From the NCBI GenBank assembly GCA_022567055.1, contig JADFHU010000001.1, forward strand, positions 1-35,143: a stretch of 35,143 bases of DNA. Direction: 5' to 3'. This DNA is from Planctomycetota bacterium. GTDB taxonomy: Bacteria > Planctomycetota > Phycisphaerae > Sedimentisphaerales > Anaerobacaceae. The position numbers and the translations under genes were made by a program. Below the pieces are notes generated by a model. That model did no database searches and had not been told where the DNA came from. It saw nothing but the letters and a program-made list of their open reading frames with translations. Numbering within the stretch: position 1 is the first letter of the stretch; each line of letters starts with the position of its first letter. Below are positions 1 through 29,837 of this stretch, piece by piece.

Positions 1-128
1 AAACGAGCGTTTTTGTGTCTGGCAAGGAAGGCGAAGCAGGCTATCTGAAGATAGTCGATGCAGCCTGACGCCGTCCAGACACAAAACAAGCCGTTTGAAT
101 GCAGAGTCATTTCGATAGGTGCTCTAAG
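1..128 (+). repeat. Rod-repeat family, subfamily B copy (MITE-like imperfect palindrome); left arm cut by the window edge
   Basis: Plus strand reads the core GTCTGGCAAGGAAGGCGAAGCAGGCTATC-TGAA-GATAGTCGATGCAGCCT and ends ...TCATTTCGATAGGTGCTCTAAG. It is the reverse complement of most of 17718-17882. It lies 18 nt beyond the plsY stop. Confidence 0.85.
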
Positions 129-2879: not shown

Positions 2880-3896
2880 TTAACATAGCATGTTGCGGGC
2901 AGCTTGACAAACTCTATCGACGCTAATGGTTTCCATACAGGCCACCTCGGGGTGGGCGCAGGTGGGCCGTTGGCAGGGGACACAGGGGCCCGTTCCCACC
3001 AACTGAATCTCCCGATCGTAACCAGTCTGTGTCCAGGCCGGGTCATTGGGACCAAAGAGGGTAATCACCTGCCGTTGCAGGGCGATGGCGATGTGGCGAG
3101 GCCCGGTATCATTGGTAATGACTAGGTCCGCATGAGAGAACAGCGCCTTGAGTTGTCCTAGGGACAGAGGCCTATCTGCTAAGTTGGTGACAGGGTAGCG
3201 ACACGCTGCGACGATGGTTTGGGCAATTCGTCTTTCCTGCGCATGGGGTGAAACGGAGAGGACGATGTGGGCCCGGCAGTCGCGGATAAGCGTTTCCGCC
3301 GTTCGCGCAAAATGACCCGGGGGCCAACACTTGCTGGGGCCGAAGGCACTGCCCGGCACCAGGATGACGAGCGGGCCCTCGACATCGCTCAACTGAGGAT
3401 AGAGTTTTTCAAAGGATGCCTGATCCCTCTCCGCTACCAGCAAGCGAGGCAAGCCCGGCGCCACGGCACGACCCAGGGACTTCACGATGTTCAGATAGTA
3501 GTCCACCATGGAGGTGGGGGCGAACCTACGGTTGGGCAGACGGGGCGGGTGCAGCCGCTTGGTGAGGAAGAGTCCGCGGCCATCGCGTGCGTATCCCACA
3601 CGCTGAGGGATGCCCGCCAGCAAGAAGGTGGCTGCCGATCCCCAAGAGCCTTTAAATAGGATGCCCAGGGAGAATCCTTGCCCGCGCAGGCGCCGGACGG
3701 CCTGCAGGGTCGAACACTGAGTCAGCCACTCGTCTGCCAGGGCACTAGAGTCCAGCATGGCCCGGGCGACGTCATTGCCATAAAAGGTAAGCGTCGCGTC
3801 GCGGAAACATTGACGGAGGGCATGCAAGGCCGGTGTGCACATGATGATGTCACCCATGGGGGAGGGCAACCAGACTAGAATCCTCGGGTGTTCCAT
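2880..3896 (-). CDS. Glycosyltransferase family 9 (ADP-heptose:LPS heptosyltransferase-like)
   Basis: MEHPRILVWLPSPMGDIIMCTPALHALRQ is a typical GT9 N-terminus. I start it at ATG 3896. The ORF-track start at 4133 reads through the repeat at 3953-4118 and looks like an artefact. Confidence 0.8.
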   Translation of the reverse strand: MEHPRILVWLPSPMGDIIMCTPALHALRQCFRDATLTFYGNDVARAMLDSSALADEWLTQCSTLQAVRRLRGQGFSLGILFKGSWGSAATFLLAGIPQRVGYARDGRGLFLTKRLHPPRLPNRRFAPTSMVDYYLNIVKSLGRAVAPGLPRLLVAERDQASFEKLYPQLSDVEGPLVILVPGSAFGPSKCWPPGHFARTAETLIRDCRAHIVLSVSPHAQERRIAQTIVAACRYPVTNLADRPLSLGQLKALFSHADLVITNDTGPRHIAIALQRQVITLFGPNDPAWTQTGYDREIQLVGTGPCVPCQRPTCAHPEVACMETISVDRVCQAARNMLC

Positions 3897-3952
3897 GGAG
3901 TTCCGATCCGCTGGAAGCGAGATTTCCCTTCTATAGTTCCTCTGACACAGCC

Positions 3953-4118
3953 CTAGGCTTTGTCGGAAAACTCCGTCGTCGGCCCGAGAGCGAGCGGTTT
4001 TTTCGCCTGGCAAAGACGGCGAAGCAGGCGATGTTGGTTTTATCGTCGATACAGCCGGATGCAGCCAGGCGGAAAAAGAGCCGCTCGAAGCCAGACCGAG
4101 TTTTCCGACAGAGCCTAG
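3953..4118 (+). repeat. Rod-repeat family, subfamily A copy (166 bp, MITE-like imperfect palindrome)
   Basis: Termini CTAGGCTTTGTCGGAAAACTC ... GAGTTTTCCGACAGAGCCTAG pair 20 of 21. Core is CGCCTGGCAAAGACGGCGAAGCAGGCGAT-loop-ATCGTCGATACAGCCGGATGCAGCCAGGCG. It lies between the stop at 4137 and the start at 3896 of two minus-strand genes. Confidence 0.92.
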
Positions 4119-4136
4119 CAACTCGTCCGGCAACGA

Positions 4137-5573
4137 TCAATAGAAATAAGAGAGTTGGATGGGCACCGATTGGGCATCATGTCTTGGCCCGATGGTGAGG
4201 GACGACGAGGACTCGGTCGCTCGCTCGGTCTGGGGTAGAATGGGGAGCTGCGCGGCATCGGGCCTTGCGGTCGGCCGGCTCAGTCTGAAACAGAGAGGTT
4301 CTTCTCCCGCTCGAACGTCAGCGGCGATGTGAGCTGGGACATCATCGGGTAGGAAGACAACCGTGTAACTGACCGCGTCGGCGTCCCGATCCGCGGTGGC
4401 GTAGATTTGCCAGGAACACTTCTCCAGATCAATGGCAAAACGTCCAAACTCGTCCGTAATCGCGTCCCACTGAATCAGGTGATTCTCAAGGCAGGAAGTC
4501 GGCAGGGTTCCATCGGCAGATCGACCCGGGTGGACCTTAACGGGAATATTGGCGAGGGGCCGCTGGTTGGCATCGACCAGGACGCCACGAATAACCCAGA
4601 TGGCCGTATCGGTGATGTCTTCATAGCTCCGCGCCGGGGTTCGGGAGCGATATCTGATGGGCGTATCCAAGCCGCAGGTATAGTTCTTGATGGGCATACC
4701 GAGTGGAAAGGATAACGTCGGGCTGATGGGCCCTTCATTGAGTCGAAATAGGGTCGTGGCCGCCAACAGTTTCAACTGGTTGAAGCGTTTGACGTAACTC
4801 CGCGCCGGATAGTGGAATCCCGAGCGTGTGTGTCGATAGGAGATAGCGTGCTCATAGACGGGCAGAGGGAACTCGGCCTCCGCCGATATCTGCTGAAAAC
4901 GCACCACCATATAGTCCTGGTCTGGATCGACTCGGTAATGATAGATCCATGAACCCTCCTGGTGAAGGACTTGGATCAGGCCCGTGTCGGTCTTAGCAAT
5001 GGTGTGAACACAGGGATCGTCGAGTGCCGCTTCCAAACGCCGATCGAAGAGGGCGTGCATGAGTATCCTCGGTGTAAACTGATTGTCCATCGGATGATCG
5101 TTGGCGGGATAGACCTGTGCCTGGCCACTTCGACTCAGTGTTCGGTAGACGCGGCGGTTAAGGCTCGATCCGTAGGGCGCGGAACAGGGTGTGTCCAGGT
5201 AGCGGCTGGCAGGCTCGTTCGACTGGCGCTTCAAGCGGAAAGCCTGAACCTGGTGGCTATAGCGCCCCGGCGCGTCGATCTGGAAGTCTTGCCGGAAGGC
5301 CACATTGCCGGCCGCGACCTCCAGGAGGTTGAGGCTCATCGGTACCGCATGTTCCGCATCCAGAGACGCTTCGGGTTTCACATAGACCGTTTCAACATGC
5401 AGGCTCTGGAAGAGAGATCTCTGTCTTTCATTGGATTGACGGATGAGCCGTGCCAGTGCGATGGCCTCTGCCCTGTGGCCGCCGGCGGCGGTGTCGAGGA
5501 CGGCACCCACCTGCGCCGGGCAGCCGAGCGCTAGAATCAGGTGGGCGAACGTCAATCGCTGTGTCCCAGTCAT
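4137..5573 (-). CDS. Hypothetical exported protein or lipoprotein candidate
   Basis: ATG at 5573 is preceded by GGAGGA with a 7-nt spacer. N-terminus MTGTQRLTFAHLILALGCPAQ looks like a signal peptide with Cys. No family recognised. The C-terminal part resembles a small beta-sandwich (VIRGVLVDANQRPLANIPVKV). Confidence 0.6.
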   Translation of the reverse strand: MTGTQRLTFAHLILALGCPAQVGAVLDTAAGGHRAEAIALARLIRQSNERQRSLFQSLHVETVYVKPEASLDAEHAVPMSLNLLEVAAGNVAFRQDFQIDAPGRYSHQVQAFRLKRQSNEPASRYLDTPCSAPYGSSLNRRVYRTLSRSGQAQVYPANDHPMDNQFTPRILMHALFDRRLEAALDDPCVHTIAKTDTGLIQVLHQEGSWIYHYRVDPDQDYMVVRFQQISAEAEFPLPVYEHAISYRHTRSGFHYPARSYVKRFNQLKLLAATTLFRLNEGPISPTLSFPLGMPIKNYTCGLDTPIRYRSRTPARSYEDITDTAIWVIRGVLVDANQRPLANIPVKVHPGRSADGTLPTSCLENHLIQWDAITDEFGRFAIDLEKCSWQIYATADRDADAVSYTVVFLPDDVPAHIAADVRAGEEPLCFRLSRPTARPDAAQLPILPQTERATESSSSLTIGPRHDAQSVPIQLSYFY

Positions 5574-5942
5574 TGTCTTGTCCTCCAGATAAGCCAATAA
5601 ACCCGTTGTTAAACCGGGGCAGCTTCCCAGATCCCGCTAGAAAAGGGTGTCTTGGGTCGACTTCTTCCTTGAGCGAAAGAGATGCTGGGCCCAAAAACAA
5701 CGATTCCAGCTGAACCGCGAACCCAATCATCCGAGTGGCTGCCTTGGTTGCACCTATAGAGACTGGTTTATAGGACCCTGCGCAACAGAGGAATTAAAGA
5801 TTTGATGAAAATACCTCGGCCCACCGAGAGATTTGCGCAGAACGCACGTGCCCAAGACCTGCGTGCGTGCCGCCTACTACAGGCCGTCGCCTGACTCGGC
5901 CATCGGTTCCTGCCCTTACGCTGGGGCTGAGCTTAGAAGAGC

Positions 5943-7976
5943 TTAGTGCTGCTCGGCCTTCTCCTTGGTGTACTGGGAGATCACCTGCTGCTGTACATTG
6001 CCGGGGACCTGCTCGTAGTGGCTTAGCTCCATCGAGTAGCTGCCTTGCCCTCCGGTCACACTCTTGAGTTGACTGTTGTACTGCGTGACTTCGGAGAGCG
6101 GCACTTGGGCCTTGATGACAATGAAGCCGCCCGCCAGCATATCCTGGCCCTGCACGCGGCCTCGCTTCGAGGCCAGGTCGCCGGTGATGTCGCCCATGTT
6201 GTCGGTCGGCACGGTGACTTCCATGTGAACGATGGGCTCCAAGAGGACCGGTCTGGCCTTTTGCAGGGCATCGACAAACGCGCCCTTGCCGGCCGCTCGG
6301 AACGCAACCTCTTTCGAATCGACCGGGTGATGCTTGCCGTCGTAGATGGACACCTTCACATCCTGCAAGGGGAAGCCCGCGACGACGCCCGACGCCATGA
6401 CGTCCTTCACACCTTTCAGGACGGCTATTTCGTATTGCCCCGGAATAGAGGCACCGAAGATGTCCCAACTGAAATCAAGGGAGGGATCGCTGTCGCGGTC
6501 CGCCGGTTCGACCCGCAGATACACTTCACCGAACTGTCCGGCGCCCCCTGATTGTTTCTTATGACGGTAGTGACCTTCGCTCTTGGCGGAGATGGTCTCC
6601 TTGTAGGGTATCTTCGGTTCTTTGGTGTTGACCTTGAGTTTGAAACGCTTCTCCAGTTTTTCAAGCATCACCCGCAGGTGGAGTTCGCCCAAGCCGTAGA
6701 TGACCAGCTCTTTGGTCTGCTGATCCCTATCCACTCTAAAACAGAGGTCCTCTTCACACAGCTTTTCCAAGGCACCGCCTATCTTCTGTTCGTCGCCCCG
6801 GGCGGCGGGTTCGAGGGCCAACGAGAACATGGGCCGCGGTAGGGGAGGCATGTCCACCGTGCCCTGAAAGACCCCGTCGTGGACGATCGAGCCGGTTTTC
6901 AGCTCGTCGACCTTTGCCAGCGTGACGATGTCGCCGGCGATGCCCGCCGGGATCTCGGGGTTTTCGTTGCCCTGTGACTTCAGGATGTGACCGGGGCGCA
7001 CGCCCTTTTTCTCGTGGTCATAGTGCAGGTTCGTTTCCGAAGTGAGGGTGCCGCTGAAAATGCGAATCATCGAGTATTTCATGTTGGTCTTGGGGTCGAA
7101 GGCGACGCGAAAGACCTGCCCGAGCAAGGGACCCTGGGGATCTGCCGTCCATTCTCTGCCAGTGTCACCCTCTTTGACCGTCAGCGGTGCAACATTCGCG
7201 GGCGAGGGGGTGCTGTTGGCCAGGGCATCCAGCAATTCCGGGACACCGATCAGACTCCGGGAATTGGTGAAAAAGATGGGAATGACGGTGCCCGAGACCA
7301 GGGCCTTCCCGAAAACCGACTGGATCTTTTCGGCGGTGACCTCTTCACCGCCGAGATAGGCCTCCATGAGATCATCGTCCGCTTCTATGATGCTTTCAAC
7401 GAGGTCCGTGTGCGCCTGCGCCACATCCATGACCGGAGATTCACCGCTGTCTTGGCTGATGCAATCGATGACAGAGTTCCCATCTGCCGAGGGCAGGTTG
7501 GCACATCGGCACTGGGAACCGAAGGTCTCCTGAATCAAACCCACCAGCTCTCCAAAATCGACATTGTCCGCGTCCATCTTGTTAATGACGATGATCCGAG
7601 ATTTTCCGGCGGTCTCTGCCATTTGACAGAACTTGCGCGTGTTGGTCTCGATGCCGGCGGCCGCGCTGACCACGATGACAGCCGTTTCCGCTGCTGCCAG
7701 GGCCGCGATAGAGGGGCCGATGAAATCCGGGTAGCCTGGCGTGTCCAGGATGTTCAGCTGCTTGCCGGCGTGCTCAACATGGACCAGGGCGGAGCCGATC
7801 GAATGCTGGTGCTCCTTCTCTTCTTCGTAGTAGTCACACACGCTTGTTTTCTCATCGACACTGCCCAAGCGGCTCGTGGTGCCTGTTTTGAAGAGCATTG
7901 CCTCGGCCAGTGAGGTCTTGCCACTTCCTCCATGACCCAGAAGAACGATGTTGCGAATGTTGCCGGTGTCAGCCAC
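5943..7976 (-). CDS. Elongation factor G paralog (EF-G2-like translational GTPase)
   Basis: G-domain motifs GHGGSGKTSL, DTPGYPDF and NKMD, with EF-G domain II-V-like sequence through the C-terminus. I start it at GTG 7976, which has GGAGG 8 nt upstream. The ORF-track start at 8048 lies inside the repeat at 8004-8169. Confidence 0.85.
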   Translation of the reverse strand: MADTGNIRNIVLLGHGGSGKTSLAEAMLFKTGTTSRLGSVDEKTSVCDYYEEEKEHQHSIGSALVHVEHAGKQLNILDTPGYPDFIGPSIAALAAAETAVIVVSAAAGIETNTRKFCQMAETAGKSRIIVINKMDADNVDFGELVGLIQETFGSQCRCANLPSADGNSVIDCISQDSGESPVMDVAQAHTDLVESIIEADDDLMEAYLGGEEVTAEKIQSVFGKALVSGTVIPIFFTNSRSLIGVPELLDALANSTPSPANVAPLTVKEGDTGREWTADPQGPLLGQVFRVAFDPKTNMKYSMIRIFSGTLTSETNLHYDHEKKGVRPGHILKSQGNENPEIPAGIAGDIVTLAKVDELKTGSIVHDGVFQGTVDMPPLPRPMFSLALEPAARGDEQKIGGALEKLCEEDLCFRVDRDQQTKELVIYGLGELHLRVMLEKLEKRFKLKVNTKEPKIPYKETISAKSEGHYRHKKQSGGAGQFGEVYLRVEPADRDSDPSLDFSWDIFGASIPGQYEIAVLKGVKDVMASGVVAGFPLQDVKVSIYDGKHHPVDSKEVAFRAAGKGAFVDALQKARPVLLEPIVHMEVTVPTDNMGDITGDLASKRGRVQGQDMLAGGFIVIKAQVPLSEVTQYNSQLKSVTGGQGSYSMELSHYEQVPGNVQQQVISQYTKEKAEQH

Positions 7977-8003
7977 TCTTTGCGCCTCCCAATAGCCCTT
8001 GTC

Positions 8004-8169
8004 CAAGGCTCTGTCTGAAAACTCCGTCGTCGGCCAGAGAGCGAGCAATTTTTTCGCCTGGCAAAGACGGCGAAGCAGGCGATGTTTTTTCTATCGTCGA
8101 TGCAGCCGGATGCAGCCAGGCGGAAAAAGGGCCGCTCGAAGCCAGATCGAGTTTTCAGTCAGTGCCTAA
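8004..8169 (+). repeat. Rod-repeat family, subfamily A copy (166 bp)
   Basis: CAAGGCTCTGTCTGAAAACTCCGTCGTCGG...GGCGAAGCAGGCGAT...GAGTTTTCAGTCAGTGCCTAA. It lies 27 nt upstream of the EF-G-like start codon, just beyond its RBS. Confidence 0.92.
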
Positions 8170-8273
8170 TGTCAACTGCCTACGGAACTGCACGAAAAGG
8201 GCTGATGATACTCCAACGAAAGGGGCAACGACAAGTCTTTTTTGACCGCGGACCAGGGCAGTCGCAAGGCAGG

Positions 8274-8353
8274 AATCGGTGATCGGTAATCAGTAATCGG
8301 TGAGGCGGCAGAGACTGGCTACTGATTACGTGACCACTGATCACTGATTACCG
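8274..8353. repeat. Heptanucleotide tandem-repeat array in inverted arrangement (unit RATCRGT x4, 19-nt spacer, complementary unit ACYGATY x4-5)
   Basis: AATCGGT GATCGGT AATCAGT AATCGGT (8274-8301), then ACTGATT ACGTGAC c ACTGATC ACTGATT ACCG (8321-8353). The arms can pair into a long stem, which is followed by TTTT on the plus strand. Confidence 0.85.
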
Positions 8354-8409
8354 TTTTCCCGGCCGAGGCTGGGAGCTAGGCCCCGCGCAACTCCATGCAC
8401 GTCCTTCAT

Positions 8410-8886
8410 CTACCGTTTATTCTTGAAAAAGGTGCGTAGCTGCTCCGAGCAAGCCTCGGCGAGGACATCCGATGTGATCCGCACGCTGTGGTTCAGGCGG
8501 GAATCCTGCACGATGTTGTACAAACTGCCGCACGCACCCGTCTTGGGATCATGGCAGCCGAAGACCAATCGATCGATCCGAGCCAGGACCAAGGCCCCGG
8601 CGCACATGGCGCAGGGCTCCAGCGTGACGTACAGGGTACATCCCTGCAAACGCCAGCTCTCCAGGGCCGAAGAGGCCTGGGTCAGGGCGATGACTTCCGC
8701 GTGGGCCGTCGGATCTTGAAGCTGCTCTCGTTGATTGTAGGCCTTGCTGATGATTTGGTCTTCATGGACGATCACACAACCAATGGGCACGTCCCCGTTG
8801 GTCTCGGCGATGTCCGCTTGAACAATAGCCATGCGCATGTAGCGGTCATCATCGCTGTTGATCAATGGAAGATCGCTATAGTCCAT
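8410..8886 (-). CDS. tadA: tRNA-specific adenosine deaminase TadA
   Basis: 158 aa. CDA-fold zinc motifs HAEVIAL and PCAMCAGAL, with size and layout typical of TadA. Confidence 0.9.
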   Translation of the reverse strand: MDYSDLPLINSDDDRYMRMAIVQADIAETNGDVPIGCVIVHEDQIISKAYNQREQLQDPTAHAEVIALTQASSALESWRLQGCTLYVTLEPCAMCAGALVLARIDRLVFGCHDPKTGACGSLYNIVQDSRLNHSVRITSDVLAEACSEQLRTFFKNKR

Positions 8887-8944
8887 GCATGAAAAGAGGA
8901 ATGATCCAAGGTTTGGGGACGGATCCTGACAAAGAATAAAAAAG

Positions 8945-9017
8945 TATCCCCAGGGGGAGTCGAACCCCCGTCTCCAGGATGAGAACCTGATATCCTAGGC
9001 CACTAGACGATGGGGAC
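8945..9017 (-). tRNA. tRNA-Glu (anticodon CUC)
   Basis: Minus strand is GTCCCCATCGTCTAGTGGCCTAGGATATCAGGTTCTCATCCTGGAGACGGGGGTTCGACTCCCCCTGGGGATA. It folds as a cloverleaf closely parallel to the E. coli tRNA-Glu layout. Anticodon loop is TTCTCAT. No encoded CCA. Confidence 0.9.
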
Positions 9018-9021
9018 ACTA

Positions 9022-9186
9022 TAAGGCTTTGTCAGAAAACTCCGTCGTCGGCCCGAGAGCGAGCGTTTTTTCGCCTGGCAAAGACGGCGAAGCAGGCGAT
9101 GTTGGTTTTATCGTCGATACAGCCGGATGCAGCCAGGCGGAAAACAAGCCGCTCGAAGCCAGATCGAGTTTTCTGACACAGCCTAG
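9022..9186 (+). repeat. Rod-repeat family, subfamily A copy (165 bp) filling the tRNA-Met/tRNA-Glu spacer
   Basis: TAAGGCTTTGTCAGAAAACTC ... GAGTTTTCTGACACAGCCTAG. It starts 4 nt from the tRNA-Glu 5' end and ends 7 nt from the tRNA-Met 3' end. Confidence 0.92.
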
Positions 9187-9193
9187 CACGTAG

Positions 9194-9267
9194 TAGCGAC
9201 GGGTGGACTCGAACCACCGACCTTAGGCTTATGAATCCCACGCTCTAACCGACTGAGCTACGTCGCC
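9194..9267 (-). tRNA. tRNA with CAU anticodon (elongator Met, or Ile2 if lysidine-modified)
   Basis: Minus strand is GGCGACGTAGCTCAGTCGGTTAGAGCGTGGGATTCATAAGCCTAAGGTCGGTGGTTCGAGTCCACCCGTCGCTA. Anticodon loop is TTCATAA. It is not initiator-like, with no C1xA72 and no GGG/CCC anticodon stem. There is one A31/G39 mismatch. Confidence 0.8.
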
Positions 9268-9286
9268 GAGTATAGCAAAGGTGCCA

Positions 9287-9316
9287 ACTATAGCAACCGC
9301 TCAGTCACGCTGTCAA
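9287..9316 (-). promoter_or_regulatory. Candidate sigma-70-type promoter for the tRNA-Met / repeat / tRNA-Glu unit
   Basis: Minus strand reads TTGACA-N18-TATAGT. The -10 box ends about 19 nt upstream of the tRNA-Met 5' end and overlaps the stop codon of the PEP-CTERM gene. Confidence 0.5.
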
Positions 9317-9917
9317 ATACTTTGCCCAAGCGTCTTCTACGGGAAAGTGTGAGTGTCCCGAGGCCCAGCAGCAGGAAGGTCGCCGGTTCGGGAACCGGAC
9401 TGGTAGGGACGACATGGATAAAGGGTTCGGGTTGAGGCCGCGACCCGCCCGGCGCTGAGAAGCTGTTGCTGAAGAAGGTGGCCGCCGTGGGCAGGAGTTG
9501 ACTCGAGCCGCCGCCGCCACCGCGGACCAGGGCCTCCTCTTCATAATCATCCTCTGCATCGATCGGGTCATACACGGCAACCACGACCTTGGAGCTGTCC
9601 AGGTGGACCTGCGTCGTACTGGACTGAGGATCGCTCACATCGCCCAACCAATAGGCGAAGCGATACCCCTCCTGCGCTACGGCCGTCAGAGAAATCTGTG
9701 AATGGGTCGCATAGGTGTGAATGCCGGAACCGGGTTTCATCGTCCCACCCCGGGCGGGGCTCTGCTCCAGCAACAGTTCCACTTGGGTCTGGCAGCGGGC
9801 ACTGTTCAAGCCAACCGACAGGGCAAGCAGCAGCATAGACAGAACCTGCCTTGTCCGGAATACTCCGTGCCACGTCATTGGATCGCCCCCGCTCGACATC
9901 AATTGCCCCCAGTTCAA
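9288..9917 (-). CDS. PEP-CTERM sorting-domain protein
   Basis: C-terminus PVPEPATFLLLGLGTLTLSRRRR is the PEP motif plus TM plus basic tail. N-terminal signal peptide LSMLLLALSVGL. The true start is probably an internal ATG (M7 or M14). Confidence 0.8.
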   Translation of the reverse strand: MNWGQLMSSGGDPMTWHGVFRTRQVLSMLLLALSVGLNSARCQTQVELLLEQSPARGGTMKPGSGIHTYATHSQISLTAVAQEGYRFAYWLGDVSDPQSSTTQVHLDSSKVVVAVYDPIDAEDDYEEEALVRGGGGGSSQLLPTAATFFSNSFSAPGGSRPQPEPFIHVVPTSPVPEPATFLLLGLGTLTLSRRRRLGKVFDSVTERLL

Positions 9918-11322: not shown

Positions 11323-11339
11323 TGTCGGCTCCTGCTACG

Positions 11340-11564
11340 CTAGGCTCTTTCTGAAAACTCCGTCGTCGGCCCGAGAGCGAGCAATTTTTTCTTTGGCTGT
11401 ATTAGGCTGCTGGCGCAGCCGCGTTTCGGACAAAGGAAGCCGCTGTTTTCGCCTGGCAAAGACGGCGAAGCAGGCGATGTTGGTTGCATCGTCGATGGAG
11501 CCGGATACAGCCAGGCGAAAAAAGGGCCGTTCGAAGCCAGATCGAGTGTTCAGACAGAGCCTTA
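11340..11564 (+). repeat. Rod-repeat family, subfamily A copy carrying a roughly 58-bp internal insertion (225 bp)
   Basis: Same termini and core as the other A copies. Extra segment CTTTGGCTGTATTAGGCTGCTGGCGCAGCCGCGTTTCGGACAAAGGAAGCCGCTGTTT sits in the left arm. The copy ends 2 nt from the tRNA-Arg 3' end and starts 18 nt upstream of the 11322 start codon. Confidence 0.9.
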
Positions 11565-11566
11565 CA

Positions 11567-11640
<74 letters not shown>

Positions 11641-11662
11641 GGCGTTAATTGACAAACGAACT

Positions 11663-11691
11663 ATGTAAGCATGCGAGCAAGAATCTGTCAA
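11663..11691 (-). promoter_or_regulatory. Candidate promoter for tRNA-Arg
   Basis: Minus strand reads TTGACA-N17-TTACAT, about 22 nt upstream of the tRNA 5' end. The geometry matches the tRNA-Met candidate, but the -10 box is weak. Confidence 0.3.
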
Positions 11692-12004
11692 TGGCGTCGC
11701 ATCCTTCCACCCAAGATAACTGTTGCCACCGGCCTGTGTGCCCGGGATGCGCCCGAGCTTGATTTTGTCCCCGACCGTGGCTGTTTTGGCTTGATTTGTC
11801 GGCCTGACGATGGTTAGATGACGACGGTAGGCATGAGCGGTGTTGCGCTCAGACACTTCGATTACTGTGGTAAGCACGTATGAAAAAACGATGTGCCGTT
11901 AGCAAATCAGCCGGAAATGGCGTTGCGCGCACAACCCGCCTTGGCACTATGTTCTCAAGTGGTGGTCATACTCCGTAGACCAAAAAGGGTGACGATAACC
12001 CTGT

Positions 12005-16671: not shown

Positions 16672-16700
16672 TTGCACAGCTTCCGAAAAATCCATACAAT
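16672..16700 (+). promoter_or_regulatory. Candidate sigma-70-type promoter (TTGCAC-N17-TACAAT)
   Basis: It is a good hexamer and spacing match. It overlaps the only in-frame ATG (16699) of the downstream ORF, which bears on start-codon choice (see findings). Confidence 0.4.
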
Positions 16701-16764
16701 GAAGCGATCTCGGCAGGGATGCGCGCGAATAGACACCGATAGGGATTCGTTCGGAGGCGAGCTG

Positions 16765-17685
16765 ATTCGTCCTGTTGCCAGACATTCCGTAGGGGGGCGC
16801 AAAGGCCAGACGGCGTTTACGCTGGTGGAGCTGCTAGTCGTGATTTCCATCATCTCGCTGATGACGGCCATCATCGTTCCGGCGTTGAGCATTGTCATGC
16901 GCAAGGCGGAGAGTCTCCGCGGAATGAACAACCTCAAGCAGGTGGGCATGCAGCTCCAACTCTTCGCCAATGATCACCAGGACCGTTATCCTGCGTCGGT
17001 TGCCACCATCGGTTCAAGCACAGGCTGGAACTGGTATGACCCCAGGCGAATGGTCGGCTCTGCCCAGCAAACGCCGACCGTCCATCGGTCCATGAGCGCC
17101 TATTTGAAGGGTTACATCGAGGACCCCTCCCTGCTTGCGTGCCCCTCGGCACCCCAAGAGTATCCCTACCTCGAGGCCATGTGGGCCGCGGGCGATGCCT
17201 GGGGCAACCCCGACACGCCCCCATTGTTGGATCCCATGAAGGGCTCCTACTGCTTTTATTGGAACTACGAGGGTATGATCACACAGGGCAGTGAGGATCG
17301 GACTCGGTTTCGTGGGCCCGTCGGACCGGGCAGCAGCAGGAAATATAGCAAACTCCTGGTGACCGATTACTATGGCAAGGGCACCGGACACGATGGTCCG
17401 CCGCCCCTCACCTTCACCAGTTGCGAAATGTTCGCGGGTGCCGCGGTCAACAGCAAAGAGAATGTGACGGCCTACTGGACCCGTCCTGTGGGTCTTGCCG
17501 AGGCGGTGCCGGTACTGTCGCTGAAGGCCGTGTACACCGACGGCCACGTCGGGACCTATGGGTCCGATGAGGTGGTTGAAATGTCCGTCATCAAGGCGCG
17601 AAGTCGCACCGCACCCGAGGTGTACGGGATTGGCGACGATCGCAGCCCGGGCCTTTTCTTCCTTCCTGCCGACGCGATGCATTGA
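16765..17685 (+). CDS. Prepilin-type N-terminal cleavage/methylation-domain protein (DUF1559 / H-X9-DG-like pseudopilin paralog 1)
   Basis: FTLVELLVVISIISLMTAII ... NNLKQVG, with C-terminal YTDGHV. The ORF track opens at 16672. I favour the ATT at 16765, which has GGAGG 7 nt upstream and gives a 17-aa leader identical in length to the paralog. The start is uncertain; the stop is firm. Confidence 0.75.
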   Translation: MRPVARHSVGGRKGQTAFTLVELLVVISIISLMTAIIVPALSIVMRKAESLRGMNNLKQVGMQLQLFANDHQDRYPASVATIGSSTGWNWYDPRRMVGSAQQTPTVHRSMSAYLKGYIEDPSLLACPSAPQEYPYLEAMWAAGDAWGNPDTPPLLDPMKGSYCFYWNYEGMITQGSEDRTRFRGPVGPGSSRKYSKLLVTDYYGKGTGHDGPPPLTFTSCEMFAGAAVNSKENVTAYWTRPVGLAEAVPVLSLKAVYTDGHVGTYGSDEVVEMSVIKARSRTAPEVYGIGDDRSPGLFFLPADAMH

Positions 17686-17717: not shown

Positions 17718-17882
17718 CTAAAGAGCCCCTACGCAAAATGACTCTGCATTCAAACGGCTTATTCTGCGTCTGGACGGCGTCAGGCTCCATCGACCGTCCT
17801 CGGACGGCCTGCTTCGCCTTCCTTGCCAGTCGCAGAAACGCTCGTTTTCGGTGCGACGATTCATTTTGATAGGCACTCTAAG
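17718..17882 (-). repeat. Rod-repeat family, subfamily B complete copy (165 bp)
   Basis: CTAAAGAGCCCCTACGCAAAATGACTC ... GATTCATTTTGATAGGCACTCTAAG. The minus strand carries the core CTGGCAAGGAAGGCGAAGCAGGCCGTC-CGAG-GACGGTCGATGGAGCCT. It lies between two tandem plus-strand pseudopilin paralogs. Confidence 0.9.
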
Positions 17883-17965: not shown

Positions 17966-18874
17966 ATGCGATCTGATCGGGCAAAGTCAGGTGGAAAGGA
18001 AAAGCACGGGGCGGGGTTTACCCTGGTCGAGCTGCTCGTCTCCATCTCGATCTTGTCCCTTCTCATGGCCATTTCAGTTCCGGGTTTTTCGGCTCTCCAA
18101 CGCAAGGCGCTCCAATTGCGGGGCATGAGCAACCTCAAGCAGATCCACCATTCCGTGAGCCTCTTCGCCAATGACCATGGGGACCGGTATCCACCCTCGG
18201 TGTCCTGGATTGGAGGCCCTTTACCACAGGCCCTTTACCATCCCCGGCGACTGGTCAGCTCGACGAAGCCGAGGGGAGCAGTCCATCGGTCGATGAGTGG
18301 TTACCTCCATGGGTACCTGTCGGATGTGTCCATATGGACCTGTCCTTCGGCGCCGGAAAAAGTCCCGGACATGCAGGAGATGTGGGATGCCGGCGACGAC
18401 TATGTGTCTCGTTCCGGCAGCGCTGCCTTCAGTGGACACTACTGTTTCTTCTGGGGGTGGACCGGCCTGATTGAAGGCGAGACCACGAATGGCCCGCGTC
18501 CGGTCTTCAGAGGTCCCAGGGGCCCAGGAGCAGACCGCAAGTCGAGCAGCCTGCTGGTTGCGGATTGTTTCGGCAAGGATATCAACACGGACCTGCCAGG
18601 CTATGCCAGCTGTGAGTGGTTTGAGGGCGCATCGGAATCCATCAGCAAGGACATTTCTGCCGTCTATTGGCTTGAAGAGAAGAATCTAGGTTTCCTTCGC
18701 TCGCCTCCGTTGCCGGAGGTGACTTTGAAGGCTGCGTACGTGGATGGACACGTGGCCCTCTATGACGTGTCGAAAAGTCTGGCCCGTGTCAGGGTTGATA
18801 GGGGAGACGGACACCCCAACAACAAAGACGGCTACTACTACATCCCCGAGGACGGCCTGCCACTAAAACGCTGA
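17966..18874 (+). CDS. Prepilin-type N-terminal cleavage/methylation-domain protein (pseudopilin paralog 2)
   Basis: MRSDRAKSGGKEKHGAG-FTLVELLVSISILSLLMAI ... SNLKQIH, with C-terminal YVDGHV. Clearly paralogous to 16765-17685. Confidence 0.8.
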   Translation: MRSDRAKSGGKEKHGAGFTLVELLVSISILSLLMAISVPGFSALQRKALQLRGMSNLKQIHHSVSLFANDHGDRYPPSVSWIGGPLPQALYHPRRLVSSTKPRGAVHRSMSGYLHGYLSDVSIWTCPSAPEKVPDMQEMWDAGDDYVSRSGSAAFSGHYCFFWGWTGLIEGETTNGPRPVFRGPRGPGADRKSSSLLVADCFGKDINTDLPGYASCEWFEGASESISKDISAVYWLEEKNLGFLRSPPLPEVTLKAAYVDGHVALYDVSKSLARVRVDRGDGHPNNKDGYYYIPEDGLPLKR

Positions 18875-19979: not shown

Positions 19980-20159
19980 GGGACCGGCAAGAAATAAATT
20001 GGACAATTTGGGGTCCAAGTGTGCCCCATATTGGGTCGCGCCCGATTGAGCGAAACCACAGGCGTAGCAGTTCTACGTCGCGGATTTCGCGATTGAGAAG
20101 CGATCAAAGATGGGGTGCAATTGGGCATTCAAAAGTCCAAGTTATTTCTTGCCGGTCCC
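19980..20159. repeat. 180-bp element bounded by 25-bp inverted repeats (MITE-like or operator/looping site)
   Basis: GGGACCGGCAAGAAATAAATTGGAC (19980-20004) against GTCCAAGTTATTTCTTGCCGGTCCC (20135-20159) matches 24 of 25. There are small internal hairpins. Only one copy is in the window. Confidence 0.75.
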
Positions 20160-20638: not shown

Positions 20639-21430
20639 TCAGCGGCCCGGCAGCCTGAGCAGGATGCCCGGTCTGAGATCGTCTGCGTCCTCCAATAGGT
20701 CCCTGTTGAGACGCAGGATGTCTAGATAGCGACGACCATCGCCGAGTTTGGCCGCGGCGATCTTCCAGAGGCTATCTCCATCGCGCACCGCGTAGGGTGG
20801 CGCTATGGCCCGCCCGGTTCGAATCTTTCCTAGATCTCTGCCCTGACCGGTCGAGCCTGCGAAATCTGAGCCAGAGGCTGCCTGCGGCAGGCGGGGAATG
20901 ACCAATGTTTGGCCGATTCTCAACTCGTCAGCAGTCTTCAGAGAATGGCGATTGGCAGAGAACAGCGCCTTGACCACCCTCATTCTGTTTCCCTGAGTGA
21001 GCCCATAGAGTCGCTTGGCGATCAGGGCGAGATTGTCGCCCGGCCGAACTGTATAGGTGACCGTTTGGGGTGACAGCGCCTCTGCCGGCCGGCCCCCGGC
21101 GGGGCCTTGCCGAGCAGACGGGTCAGGACGGCTGGACGCTATCTTGGCTGGATTTGTATCGGCTTGCCTGCTTTCCCTGGAGGTCTGTCGGCTCGGTGAG
21201 GTCGGCCTGGGATTGATGGAGAGGGGAAGATCGGCAATCCTGCGGGCGCTTGGCTTCAGGCTGCGGTGGTCTTGGATCTCGTGCGTTGCGAACCGTTGCG
21301 TGGAGCTGCTCAAGCCGCGCAGGGCAAAGGCGAGCACGAAGATGGCCAGAAGTCCAACGAGCACCCCTATTTTCGTATTCGCATTCATACGCTGTCTTGC
21401 TCCTGTTCGAGTCAGAGGTCGATGCCTCAT
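20639..21430 (-). CDS. LysM peptidoglycan-binding domain protein (two LysM repeats, N-terminal TM)
   Basis: YTVRPGDNLALIAKRLYG...IGQTLVIP and YAVRDGDSLWKIAAAKLGDGRRY...LRPGILLRLP. TM is IGVLVGLLAIFVLAFAL. Confidence 0.85.
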   Translation of the reverse strand: MRHRPLTRTGARQRMNANTKIGVLVGLLAIFVLAFALRGLSSSTQRFATHEIQDHRSLKPSARRIADLPLSINPRPTSPSRQTSRESRQADTNPAKIASSRPDPSARQGPAGGRPAEALSPQTVTYTVRPGDNLALIAKRLYGLTQGNRMRVVKALFSANRHSLKTADELRIGQTLVIPRLPQAASGSDFAGSTGQGRDLGKIRTGRAIAPPYAVRDGDSLWKIAAAKLGDGRRYLDILRLNRDLLEDADDLRPGILLRLPGR

Positions 21431-21775
21431 CGCGACAGAGAATAGCGGCGAGTCGGCAGGCCCATATCATTGACACCACCAGATCTATAACAGTTGGCTA
21501 TGTCGACACATTCGACCGGGGGACTTTGACGGAAACTCTTTGCCGGCCGGGCAATCGGACCAGCCGTCCTCTGTTCGGGACACCGTCAGAATAGGCTTGC
21601 CAACCGCCTCCCCGGCCTGTACCCCAATACCCAATCCCACAGTACTTTAGGCCCCTGCGCTTATCTCACTTTTCCTCTCCCTCCGCACCGCAGGAGTCAT
21701 TTTTTGCCCGAGGCTCCCAAGACGATTTTGGGGCCGCGACTTGCCGCCCAAGGCCGGTTGTGTTTATATGGGACC

Positions 21776-21941
21776 CTAGGCTCTGTCTGAAAACTCGATC
21801 TGGCTTCGAGCGGCCCTTTTTCCGCCTGGCTGCATCCGGCTCCATCGACGATGAAACCAACATCGCCTGCTTCGCCGTCTTTGCCAGGCGAAAAAATTGC
21901 TCGCTCTCGGGCCAACGACCGAGTCTTCAGACAGAGCCCGA
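21776..21941 (-). repeat. Rod-repeat family, subfamily A copy (166 bp), reverse orientation
   Basis: Plus strand reads CTAGGCTCTGTCTGAAAACTCGATCTGGCTTCGAGCGG...CATCGCCTGCTTCGCCGTCTTTGCCAGGCG...GAGTCTTCAGACAGAGCCCGA. It ends 18 nt before the moaB ORF. Confidence 0.92.
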
Positions 21942-21958
21942 TGGTTTGATCGCTGCAC

Positions 21959-22546
21959 GTGGGCATAGACGAATGGAGGTCCAGCTTGGCAGAGAAAAGC
22001 GAACGAGAATTCCTTCCCCTAGGGGTTGCCGTCCTGACGATCTCCGACACGCGAACGGAAGCAACAGACAAATCGGGCAGACTCCTGGTGAACAGATTGG
22101 AAGGGGCGGGACATCACAGGGTAGACAAACAGATCGTGCCCGACGATTTGTATCAGATTCGGGCGGTTGTCGCGCGTTGGATCGCGCAGGCGGATTGCCA
22201 AGTCATTCTCACGACGGGCGGCACCGGCGTGACCGGTAGGGACGGCACGCCCGAGGCCGTTGCGCCTCTGCTGGACAAGGTCATTGACGGTTTCGGGGAG
22301 ATGTTTCGCATGCTGTCCTATGACGACATCGGCACCGCGACCATGCAGTCCCGCACGCTGGCCGGTGTCGCCAATGGCACCTATGTCTTCTGCCTACCCG
22401 GCTCGGGTGGGGCCTGTGCCTTGGGGTGGGACAAGTTGATCAGCCACCAGTTGGATTACCGCACTCGCCCCTGCAATCTCGTAGAACTCATGCCGCGTTT
22501 GCTGGAAACGCTCGGCGATCGCCATCCGACCGGACATCATCACTGA
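21959..22546 (+). CDS. moaB: Molybdenum cofactor biosynthesis protein B (MoaB/MogA family)
   Basis: Collinear with E. coli MoaB as I recall it: LTISDTR...[44 protein letters not shown]. The true start may be TTG 21986, which has GGAGG 6 nt upstream. Confidence 0.88.
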
Positions 22547-22551
22547 ACACA

Positions 22552-22600
22552 GATCACGGATCACGGATCACGGATTACAGATTACAGATTACTGATCACT
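22552..22600 (+). repeat. Heptanucleotide tandem array, 7 units of GAT(C/T)AC(G/A/T)
   Basis: GATCACG x3, GATTACA x2, GATTACT, GATCACT. It begins 6 nt after the moaB stop. The unit is the complement of the 8274-8301 unit (RATCNGT). Confidence 0.9.
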
Positions 22601-22628
22601 GCTCCCGCCTTCCCCTCTCCGATGGTTG

Positions 22629-22637
22629 TGGTACAAT
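22629..22637 (+). promoter_or_regulatory. Candidate extended -10 promoter element (TGgTACAAT) for the 22696 gene
   Basis: TGGTACAAT lies 59 nt upstream of the ATG and about 30 nt downstream of the heptad array. No good -35 box. Confidence 0.35.
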
Positions 22638-22695
22638 GGCGGCCCAGCGTCATGATAAGGTCTCTCTGAACGGTTGTTTTGACAGGAGCCAACTG

Positions 22696-23514
22696 ATGAT
22701 GAAACGGCCTGCCTTTACACTCATCGAACTGCTCGTGGTGATCGCCATCATCGCGATTTTGATGGCCGTCCTCATGCCGGCCCTGGGCTTGGCCCGTGAT
22801 CAGGGCCGCAAGATCGCCTGTGCCAACAACCTCCGCTCATTGGCCACAGCCAACAGTCTCTACGCGGCCAATCACGATGATTGGGGCGTACCGTGCAGAG
22901 ATTCTACTCGTCAGTCGGGCAGTGTTTGGACGGCCAACGCCGAATTCCGGCAGTCAATCGGCTATGAGGGCTCTGAAAAGGTTTCAGAAAGGTCGCAAGT
23001 CCAGACCCCCAAAAAATACAAGTGCCCCAGCGACACGCAAAAGGCCTGGGCGCATGCCTGGGACATCGAAAACGGTAACCAGTTGGGGACCCTGGTCAGC
23101 TACGGCTTTAATATCGAAGATTGGTATCCTTCCCGCGTGCAAGGTTCCTGGGTCGCAACGATGGCATTGGAGTTGTTGGGCCACAAGCTGTCGACCGTGA
23201 AACAGCCGGGCATTAAACTTCACTTCAATGAGGCTCACGACTGGTGGAGCAAGTGGCAGGGCGCCAATTACATAAACGGCTGGGATGTCTTGGGACAAGA
23301 CGGCACCGTCAATGAGTACAAGGCAGCAGGAACCGGGGGCCCCACCATGTATCGGCACAATGGACGCGCCAATCTTGCCCTCTATGATGGTCATGTCGAG
23401 AGCTGGCGGAAAGATGCCCTCTGGATCCCGGAGCATTATAATCAAAGGCCCTACGATCCGGGCATTTGGGTCGCCAAAATGGAGGTCTGGAGAGCCAATG
23501 GCGGCATGCGATAG
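22696..23514 (+). CDS. Prepilin-type N-terminal cleavage/methylation-domain protein with canonical H-X9-DG motif (pseudopilin paralog 3)
   Basis: AGGAG, 7 nt, then [39 protein letters not shown], and C-terminal [14 protein letters not shown] (H-X9-DG). The ORF-track 5' extension to 22426 crosses the heptad array and is rejected. Confidence 0.85.
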
Positions 23515-29713: not shown

Positions 29714-29837
29714 AAAGGCTCTGTCTGGAAACTCGATCTGGCTTCCCTTCGGATCTGCCCTGGGCCATGAGTTCGGGCCGAATGGGGCCTCGGGGTCGAA
29801 GACGAGCCGACCGACGGAGGTTTCAGACAGAGCCTAG
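29714..29837 (-). repeat. Rod-repeat chimeric variant (124 bp): subfamily A arms with an unrelated core
   Basis: AAAGGCTCTGTCTGGAAACTCGATCTGGCTTC ... CCGACCGACGGAGGTTTCAGACAGAGCCTAG. The interior lacks the GGCGAAGCAGG block. Its terminal CTA supplies the stop codon of the adjacent pseudogene. Confidence 0.8.

Follow-up and report, generated by a model that had tools for sequence, protein, structure and literature searches.

A probable family of hairpin-forming miniature inverted-repeat transposable elements in Planctomycetota genomes

Long stem-loops at the RNA level are known to be a classic feature of miniature inverted-repeat transposable elements (MITEs), as set out in a review of bacterial repeats (PMC3184786). 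For the mobile repeat bcr1 compensatory changes have been reported, and for Nezha both filled and empty sites (PMC3184786). Here we describe a repeat of about 160 nt in a 35,143-nt stretch of DNA from a Planctomycetota bacterium (contig JADFHU010000001.1, positions 1 to 35,143; hereafter, the window), in which an earlier note had drawn attention to a putative multi-stem structure at 17718-17882. This segment is a minus-strand copy of an imperfect palindrome, one of eight family members in the window. The family comprises at least four subtypes (A, B, C and D) with a common core, the outer arms of which are just 27 to 45% identical yet still complementary. The repeat resembles bcr1 of the Bacillus cereus group (about 155 bp; PMC3184786) in its size, in its dispersed and non-syntenic copies, in its short direct-repeat flanks and in having a fold that is kept by compensatory changes while single copies lose stability. 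However, bcr1 has 5-bp duplications, a two-stem cruciform-like fold and known transcription, whereas the present repeat has 2- to 3-bp (TA/TWA) duplications and a single long hairpin, belongs to another phylum, has no sequence similarity to bcr1 and is known here from sequence alone.

Other described families offer similar partial matches. The Correia/NEMIS elements of Neisseria, RUP of Streptococcus pneumoniae and ERIC/YPAL of Enterobacteria are likewise non-coding sequences of 100 to 160 bp with terminal inverted repeats, which lie between genes in both orientations and form long RNA hairpins when co-transcribed (PMC3733652, PMC3184786). In these families the termini are conserved, whereas in the present repeat the central core is the most conserved part, and there is no sequence relationship between them. 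All three groups insert at TA; in contrast to them, we know of no IHF-like site or RNase III processing for the present repeat. The Tourist MITEs, with their PIF/Harbinger-IS5 (PHIS) transposases, share with it the 3-bp TTA/TAA flanks (type B) and the 2-bp TA flanks (type A) (PMC12730594). For the repeat, unlike Tourist, no cognate transposase turned up in the window or the roughly 590 kb of loci. The termini of IS5-family and Tourist elements begin with GGC or GAG, followed by a CTGT-like motif. The termini of the repeat (GGC or GAG, then a CTGT-like motif) resemble these ends, a likeness that we take to be a lead only.

Our results suggest, with a probability that we put at roughly 0.78, that the repeat is a family of MITEs of about 156 to 165 bp, non-coding and folding into a single long imperfect hairpin, which has spread in many Planctomycetota genomes. 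The kind of element is known but the family is so far undescribed: searches of the literature by topic and by core sequence gave nothing on this repeat family, only three tRNAs passed the Rfam gathering thresholds in the window, and a search of 3900-4170 against Rfam at E <= 10 gave no match. The earlier note, which is partly supported by what follows, had missed this main point.

Evidence for mobility comes from empty sites, which were sought among metagenome contigs by means of the two tRNA genes with a short spacer and were found in two contigs (L087 and L088). The first is 84 to 95% identical to window positions 7323-9327 but lacks the elements at 8007-8166 and 9025-9183, while the second lacks the element at 9025-9183; a search of both contigs with a covariance model (CM) of the family found no copy. 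At the 8007-8166 site, L087 2-683 corresponds to window 7323-8004 and L087 682-1555 to window 8165-9022, leaving 162 extra nt in the window (160 + 2). At the 9025-9183 site the spacer measures 176 nt in the window versus 15 nt in L087 and L088, a difference of 161 nt (159 + 2), and the sequence ACTAT-TA-TAGTTTAG of L087 is matched in the window by ACTAT-AA, the element, and then TA-GCACGTAG. Among 27 type A copies, 16 have TA as the left flank and 23 as the right flank. The flanks of type B copies are identical triplets (TTA/TTA or TAA/TAA) in 9 of 15 cases and have the same middle base in 13 of 15; as none of the 15 pairs is reverse-complementary, the triplets are direct duplications, and the inverted repeat does not extend into them. 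The terminal sequences of the family include GGCTCTGTCTGAAAAC, GAGTGCCTAACAAAATGA and GAGCAGTTTGC, and in most copies 13 or 14 of the 14 end positions are complementary (for example, GGCTCTGTCTGAAAAC...GTTTTCAGACAGAGCC and GAGTGCCTAACAAAATGA...TCATTTTGTTAGGTGCTC). The flanking genes are unrelated housekeeping genes without synteny (plsY, glycosyltransferases, EF-G-like, tadA, tRNAs, an ECF sigma factor, pseudopilin-like genes and sulfatases). The repeat is thus like other MITEs in being shorter than about 400 bp without coding capacity, in its terminal inverted repeats and target-site duplication, in its dispersed copies in both orientations and in its insertion polymorphism. Elements of 156 to 165 nt are non-coding, and the open reading frames (ORFs) that cross copies in the window (2880-4133 with a TTG start, 11335-11877 and 21760-22239) are read-through artefacts of the ORF lister.

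A genome scan with a 21-nt core pattern, using one genome per species, gave at least 84 loci. The CM, built from 42 diverse copies, confirmed 81 among the 84 matches listed and gave 98 hits over 85 sources in all; three listed loci, in Phenylobacterium, Steroidobacteraceae and Lentisphaerae, were not confirmed and are chance matches. Among the matches listed, the metagenome-assembled genomes (MAGs) that carry the repeat are labelled Phycisphaerae, Sedimentisphaerales, Pirellulales, Planctomycetaceae, Candidatus Kuenenia or 'Planctomycetota', with one Verrucomicrobia, and a single MAG (JADFMM01) supplies at least 23 of the listed loci. No match was found in 72,556 plasmids, and of three pattern matches in viral contigs none was confirmed by the CM. 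Membership in the rhizobial repeats (RIME, Sm-repeats) was considered and rejected, as plasmids were without a match and the genome scan gave Planctomycetota.

The fold itself is well supported. The earlier note had proposed, from seven copies in the window, that several stems are preserved by paired changes, and all of the stem and loop sequences that it quoted are found in the window copies. The apical stem reads GGCGAT(G)/(C)ATCGTC in type A copies, GGCTATC/GATAGTC at 1-128 and, on the minus strand, GGCCGTC/GACGGTC at 17718; the next stem is CGGC/GCCG in type A and AGGC/GCCT in type B, the basal stem is GCCTGG/CCAGGC and GTCTGG/CCAGAC, respectively, and the internal-loop strands GAAGCA and GAT(G/A)(C/G)A are kept across copies. 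Several details needed revision. The identity between types A and B is 58 to 61% rather than 65 to 70%; the copy at 17718-17882 lies on the minus strand, with the element proper at 17723-17878 between 3-nt flanks; and an eighth family member, with type-A termini and another interior, lies at 29716-29835 on the minus strand. The terminal-stem variants GTCGG/CCGAC (at 3955) and GTCAG/CTGAC (at 9024) are present, but rather than having arisen independently they are subfamily markers common to several genomes (T-A in 11, G-C in 8, A-T in 2 and C-G in 1).

In a MAFFT alignment of the 42 diverse copies, which represent four subtypes, RNAalifold predicted 41 pairs in seven helices, with two-sided changes at 32 of the 41. 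Standard pairs occupied 92.0% of cells, compared with 73.1 +/- 0.6% when the 3' partners were shuffled (none of 500 shuffles reached 92.0%), a control that ignores relatedness and hence overstates significance. More convincing are the number of pair types and the controls in which the partners were slid by 1 to 3 columns, whereupon paired cells dropped to 31 to 43%. Paired changes are therefore far beyond chance, and the multi-stem fold is kept through compensatory changes across four diverged subtypes. Two isolated pairs in the internal-loop region illustrate this: at 66-113 every copy has either C-G (22) or A-U (20), and at 63-116 there is G-C in 26 copies versus A-U in 13. By inspection, an invariant tandem G·A/A·G lies between these two pairs, and above it stands a 6x6 internal loop with strands GAAGCA and GAUGCA that are nearly equal when read 5' to 3', so that the loop is two-fold pseudo-symmetric; the apical stem with its G·U stands above this loop. 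A kink-turn core was considered and rejected, again by inspection, as what separates the G·A pairs from the outer stem is not a 3-nt bulge but a 2x3 loop together with a covarying pair. The covariation is real, but it marks subfamilies of a mobile element and not an RNA gene selected at each site.

It might be argued that such covariation arose without structural selection, either by templated 'quasipalindrome correction' or because subfamilies were reborn as the fold-back of a diverged insertion sequence (IS) end. The absence of strand-specific constraint in single copies (see below) would agree with this, as would the near-equal variation of paired and unpaired columns in type B (10.4% versus 11.4%; in type A, 5.9% versus 12.3%). 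Moreover, at least two unrelated full-length hairpin families occur in these genomes, suggesting that long palindromes are generated or tolerated by some general mechanism. However, the same non-complementary loops and the same G·T position are found in all four subtypes despite the divergence of their arms, asymmetries that fold-back rebirth or templated correction would erase, and the isolated loop pairs 66-113 and 63-116 covary cleanly. The 3' part of the core, which lies outside the search pattern, is 76 to 95% identical between types, versus 27 to 45% for the outer arms. A conserved core with non-complementary loops rules out a simple rebirth of subfamilies as the fold-back of one IS end and argues against the view that the complementarity is due to hairpin-templated correction alone. 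An origin without selection for structure is hence unlikely.

The core reads CTGGCAAGGA(A/C)GGCGAAGCAGGC ... GTCGATGCAGCC(G/T)GA(C/T)GC and contains the tandem G·A, the GAAGCA/GAUGCA loop and an invariant G·U. Because the conserved loops are not complementary between the arms, they cannot be symmetric binding sites for a transposase on double-stranded DNA. The core could be a strand-specific folded module that is bound as single-stranded DNA (ssDNA) or RNA by a transposase, a recombinase or a host protein and is needed for propagation, a suggestion that we make tentatively and regard as possible but improbable.

The two strands do not fold equally well. We call forward the strand that reads ...CTGGCAA(A/G)GA(C/A)GGCGAAGCAGGC... 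Both strands were folded, as the earlier note had proposed. Of 85 full-length copies, 82 with RNA parameters and 76 with DNA parameters had a forward fold more stable than that of the complement, and this held for all four subtypes. The earlier note had also read a conserved G-T pair as pointing to one strand. Indeed, the second apical pair is G opposite T in all seven copies that it listed, and in the wider family it is G·U in 81 copies, G-C in 9 and A-U in none; a change from G·U to G-C only fits pairing on the forward strand. The alignment of 98 copies has 270 G·U cells versus 96 A·C cells. However, 178 of the 270 sit in five columns in which the wobble is fixed in whole subfamilies, and elsewhere the counts are 92 versus 90, so the signature holds for the fixed positions and not beyond them. 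Among rare substitutions, present in one or two copies, G·T (25) and A·C (28) are about equally frequent (15 versus 20 in type A; 10 versus 8 in type B). This indicates that inserted copies drift without strand preference and that it is the subfamily-founding lineages that are under constraint; the rare-substitution counts give no sign of a one-strand fold constraint in single copies. Paired columns vary half as much as unpaired columns in type A and almost as much in type B, as given above. The earlier view of a selected RNA or ssDNA structure is therefore borne out as to the fold, which is real and favours one strand at the level of the family, but not as to selection at each locus, where the copies are mobile insertions. 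We infer that the role of the hairpin lies in propagating the element, or in making new insertions tolerable, rather than in a task performed at every individual site.

A preference for one strand could also mean that the repeat is an ssDNA recombination substrate, in which the hairpin of one strand is recognised: a REP/REPIN-like sequence with a RAYT-type HUH enzyme, a palindrome derived from IS200/IS605, or an attC-like site. The strand asymmetry, the fixed G·T pairs and the conserved non-complementary loops all agree with this, and the two-fold-symmetric loop would suit a dimeric hairpin-binding protein. The attC R'' and R' boxes have the consensus RYYYAAC ... GTTRRRY, and the GCCTAAC...GTTAGGT found in some type B copies fits it. 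However, the AAC/GTT boxes are missing from type A and from the type B copies of the window (GCCTATC ... GCGTAGG), and the copies are single and dispersed among housekeeping and tRNA genes rather than in cassette arrays; the repeat was on these grounds rejected as an integron attC site. The TTA/TAA or TA flanks, together with a length difference of the element plus 2 nt, point to duplication of a staggered cut, which neither HUH nor attC routes make, and the inverted repeat spans the whole length including the very termini. REP/REPIN-RAYT systems resemble the repeat in being abundant extragenic palindromes with strand-specific features and a hairpin that is recognised as a single strand. REPs (repetitive extragenic palindromes) are, though, 20 to 40 bp long, have a GTAG or CGTC tag and show no target duplication (PMC3733652), whereas the present repeat is far longer at 160 bp, is palindromic to its tips, has no GTAG or CGTC tag at an end and has duplications; we therefore do not assign it to them. 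No RAYT-like gene was noticed beside the copies, although not every ORF was scanned. Element orientation also does not track GC skew in the window. We regard a role as an ssDNA recombination substrate as very unlikely.

As MITEs, the copies would depend for movement on a DDE transposase acting in trans. New subfamilies would be founded only by source elements that have retained the hairpin, and paired changes would in this way be fixed in transposition-competent lineages, while each copy would decay neutrally after insertion. The fixed G·T positions and the conserved non-complementary loops (the tandem G·A and GAAGCA/GAUGCA) would make one strand the better folder, and such one-strand features suggest that a single strand, ssDNA or RNA, may be read at a propagation step or by a host factor. 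A copy within a transcript would form a strong RNA hairpin, which may explain the mild deficit of the steadier strand in the gene sense.

Several points weigh against the repeat being a MITE family of this kind. Neither the window nor about 590 kb of loci yielded an autonomous element or a transposase. A fuzzy search with seven variants of the terminal repeat outside known copies gave only the right ends of composites, a 55-nt mini-element (L075 5371-5425) and two solo ends; no related inverted-repeat pairs 0.5 to 3.5 kb apart were found; truncated copies in L046 and L074 have ordinary genes next to them and no transposase; and the gene families that recur near copies are sulfatases, ECF sigma factors and similar, with no transposases among them. 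The most likely enzyme would be a DDE transposase of the IS5 or PIF-Harbinger (PHIS) kind, judging from the 2- to 3-bp TA/TWA duplications and the GGC/GAG-type termini. Both 2-bp and 3-bp duplications occur among the PIF/Harbinger-ISL2EU (PHIS) transposons, to which the bacterial IS5 family is related (PMC12730594). A possible alternative is an IS630/Tc1-type enzyme (TA duplication), which is equally compatible for type A. The target is also ambiguous: for type A, duplication of TA and insertion of an A...T-ended element into the middle of TA would look the same in sequence, and for type B, with no empty site found, either a 3-bp duplication or insertion into TTTA is possible. In addition, conservation is higher in the core than at the termini; MITEs usually show the opposite, and our model does not account for the difference. 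Finally, what can be said of orientation depends on crude longest-ORF calls together with the tRNAs of the window.

With those gene calls, all four orientation classes are seen: the element is antisense to both neighbours at 26 sites and in the sense of both at 12, with 13 sites between convergent and 6 between divergent genes. The excess in tandem contexts (26 versus 12, p about 0.03) includes five antisense sites from the window and falls to 21 versus 12 without the window copies. The earlier note had suggested that the structured molecule is antisense to its neighbours. In the window this is so for most copies, the copy at 21778 lying between divergent genes, but over the whole sample the bias is weak, about 2:1 at most, and not secure. 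Near 12 kb, element orientation flips along with gene orientation. GC skew, which is positive over most of the window, shows no such flip at this point, and replication direction therefore does not explain the pattern. An antisense bias would fit mild counter-selection of insertions that put the steadier hairpin into mRNA.

These data also bear on whether the copies are genes for structured non-coding RNAs, or cis-regulatory RNAs, that are transcribed from the GGCGAAGCAGGC strand antisense to their neighbours with a fold selected at each locus. Strong covariation with conserved non-canonical motifs, the steadier forward fold in 82 of 85 copies and the antisense excess would all be expected of such RNAs. 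However, the copies are insertions missing from a close relative and bear target-site flanks, they occur in all four orientation classes beside neighbours that are not conserved, and neither strand is favoured among their rare substitutions. A sigma-70-like promoter was found neither within the element nor next to it, and the sole terminator-like site is weak and lies on the reverse strand of type A. Rfam gave no match even at E <= 10, and the bias in orientation shrinks once the window copies are set aside. We consider an origin as RNA genes or regulatory RNAs most unlikely, and read the repeat as a MITE family in what follows.

The members in the window, at a density of about one per 4.4 kb, were placed by repeat families, inverted-repeat pairs, alignments and the CM, and are as follows.

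1-127, plus strand: type B copy, its 5' part lost at the window start; element end at 124 (GGTGCTC), flank TAA at 125-127
3954-4117, plus strand: type A copy; element GGC...GCC at 3956-4115 with TA on both sides; CM score 158.9 bits
8005-8168, plus strand: type A copy; element at 8007-8166, flanks AA and TA; CM score 154 bits
9023-9185, plus strand: type A copy; element at 9025-9183, flanks AA and TA; CM score 161.7 bits
11341-11563, plus strand: type A copy; element at 11343-11561; repeat families D1 and D2; CM match at 11402-11562
17720-17881, minus strand: type B copy, the one named in the earlier note; element at 17723-17878, minus-strand flanks TTA and TTT; CM match at 17722-17880 (minus), 147 bits
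21776-21940, minus strand: type A copy; CM match at 21778-21939 (minus), 158 bits; inverted-repeat pairs I1 to I4
29716-29835, minus strand: short relative with type-A termini GGCTCTGTCTGAAACCTCCGTCGG ... GAAGCCAGATCGAGTTTCCAGACAGAGCC; CM score 25.3 bits

Every window copy folds end to end as a single long hairpin, with the forward strand ahead of its reverse complement by 6.6 to 22 kcal/mol. The copy at 1-127 matches the CM at 1-125 (model positions 34-160, 114.5 bits), and a contig end of MAG JADFMM01 (L041) is identical to it, so that this MAG probably represents the same genome as the window or one very near to it. The copy at 3954-4117 (minimum free energy [MFE], -96.9 kcal/mol forward versus -83.0 reverse) lies between a heptosyltransferase gene identified by Pfam (2880-3896, minus strand) and an ORF at 4137-5573 (minus), and that at 8005-8168 between an EF-G-like gene (5943-7976, minus) and a tadA-like deaminase gene (8410-8886, minus). 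The copy at 9023-9185 occupies the spacer between tRNA-Glu (8944-9017, minus) and tRNA-Met (9193-9267, minus), and that at 11341-11563 ends 5 nt from the 3' end of tRNA-Arg (11567-11640, minus). Both may affect the processing of tRNA precursors; co-transcription of the tRNAs would place a 160-nt hairpin within the precursor. The internal insertion of 56 nt (about 11392-11447) in the element at 11343-11561 contains a small hairpin, GGCTGC-TGGC-GCAGCC, and is without a second copy elsewhere in the window or among the fetched loci.

The copy at 17720-17881 (MFE, -72.6 kcal/mol forward versus -62.7 reverse) has on either side a plus-strand gene for a prepilin-type N-methyl protein (16699-17685 and 17966-18874; Pfam). 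An exact-protein look-up of the second gene found the same filled site in two contigs of the same strain (L085 and L086) and in no other contigs. Within these paralogous genes, at 16960-17000 and 18161-18201, there is a 41-nt direct repeat of 80% identity. The copy at 21776-21940 (MFE, -103.5 kcal/mol forward versus -81.5 reverse) lies between two divergent genes, a LysM-domain gene (20639-21430, minus) and a gene at 22426-23514 (plus). The short relative at 29716-29835 is without the conserved core and has a TCGTCTTCGACCC...CCGAAGGGAAGCC module in its place; the same module is inserted within full copies in L070, L073, L021 and L001, and the TCGTCTTCGACCC module recurs in five loci besides this relative.

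Further derivatives were found beyond the window. In an 'A-long' subfamily, present at nine loci in five MAGs, a module of about 63 nt (CAACNGCGGCTGCCTTTATCCGACAG...AGCTAAAGAAAA) stands at one fixed point of the 3' arm; its occurrence in five MAGs indicates that the composite itself has multiplied. The loci are as follows.

A-long loci: L001, L010, L013, L018, L022, L028, L037, L040 and L042; the module lies, for example, at L037 5847-5909

Mini-forms include the 55-nt element at L075 5371-5425, which has nothing but type-A termini, and a coreless type D element of 88 nt (L071 7631-7718). In remoter relatives (L028 562-739 and L012 153-330) the lower loop (TGGCAAGG ... ACGCCGNCCAG) is kept and the upper part replaced. 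Several MAG contigs end within copies (L003, L041, L049 and L058) and the window also starts within one, which indicates that the family breaks short-read assemblies.

The window also holds a second, unrelated hairpin repeat of about 180 nt at 19980-20159, with termini GGGACCGGCAAGAAATAA ... TTATTTCTTGCCGGTCCC and an MFE of -104 kcal/mol. Copies of it occur at non-orthologous sites in L056, L077, L012, L028, L075, L076, L008, L001 and L087, and it is probably another MITE family of the same genomes. In L056, near-perfect inverted repeats of about 170 nt (2949-3120 and 5740-5877), 2.6 kb apart, surround a sulfatase gene (4046-5530); they are unrelated to the repeat studied here.

In summary, we describe a family of probable hairpin MITEs which, like the repeat at 19980-20159, breaks assemblies and creates spurious ORFs. 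It will keep turning up among 'structured RNA candidates' in Planctomycetota, so a model of the family is useful for masking. The family is a clean case in which textbook covariation stems from lineage selection on a mobile element while inserted copies drift, and hence a caution for covariation-based discovery of RNAs. Its one unusual feature, a core more conserved than the ends and with conserved non-canonical loops on one strand, could point to a hairpin-dependent step of transposition or to a host factor. If the core is indeed a folded module of this kind, this would be a transposon family, spread across classes of Planctomycetota, whose essential cis-element is the central hairpin and not the termini.

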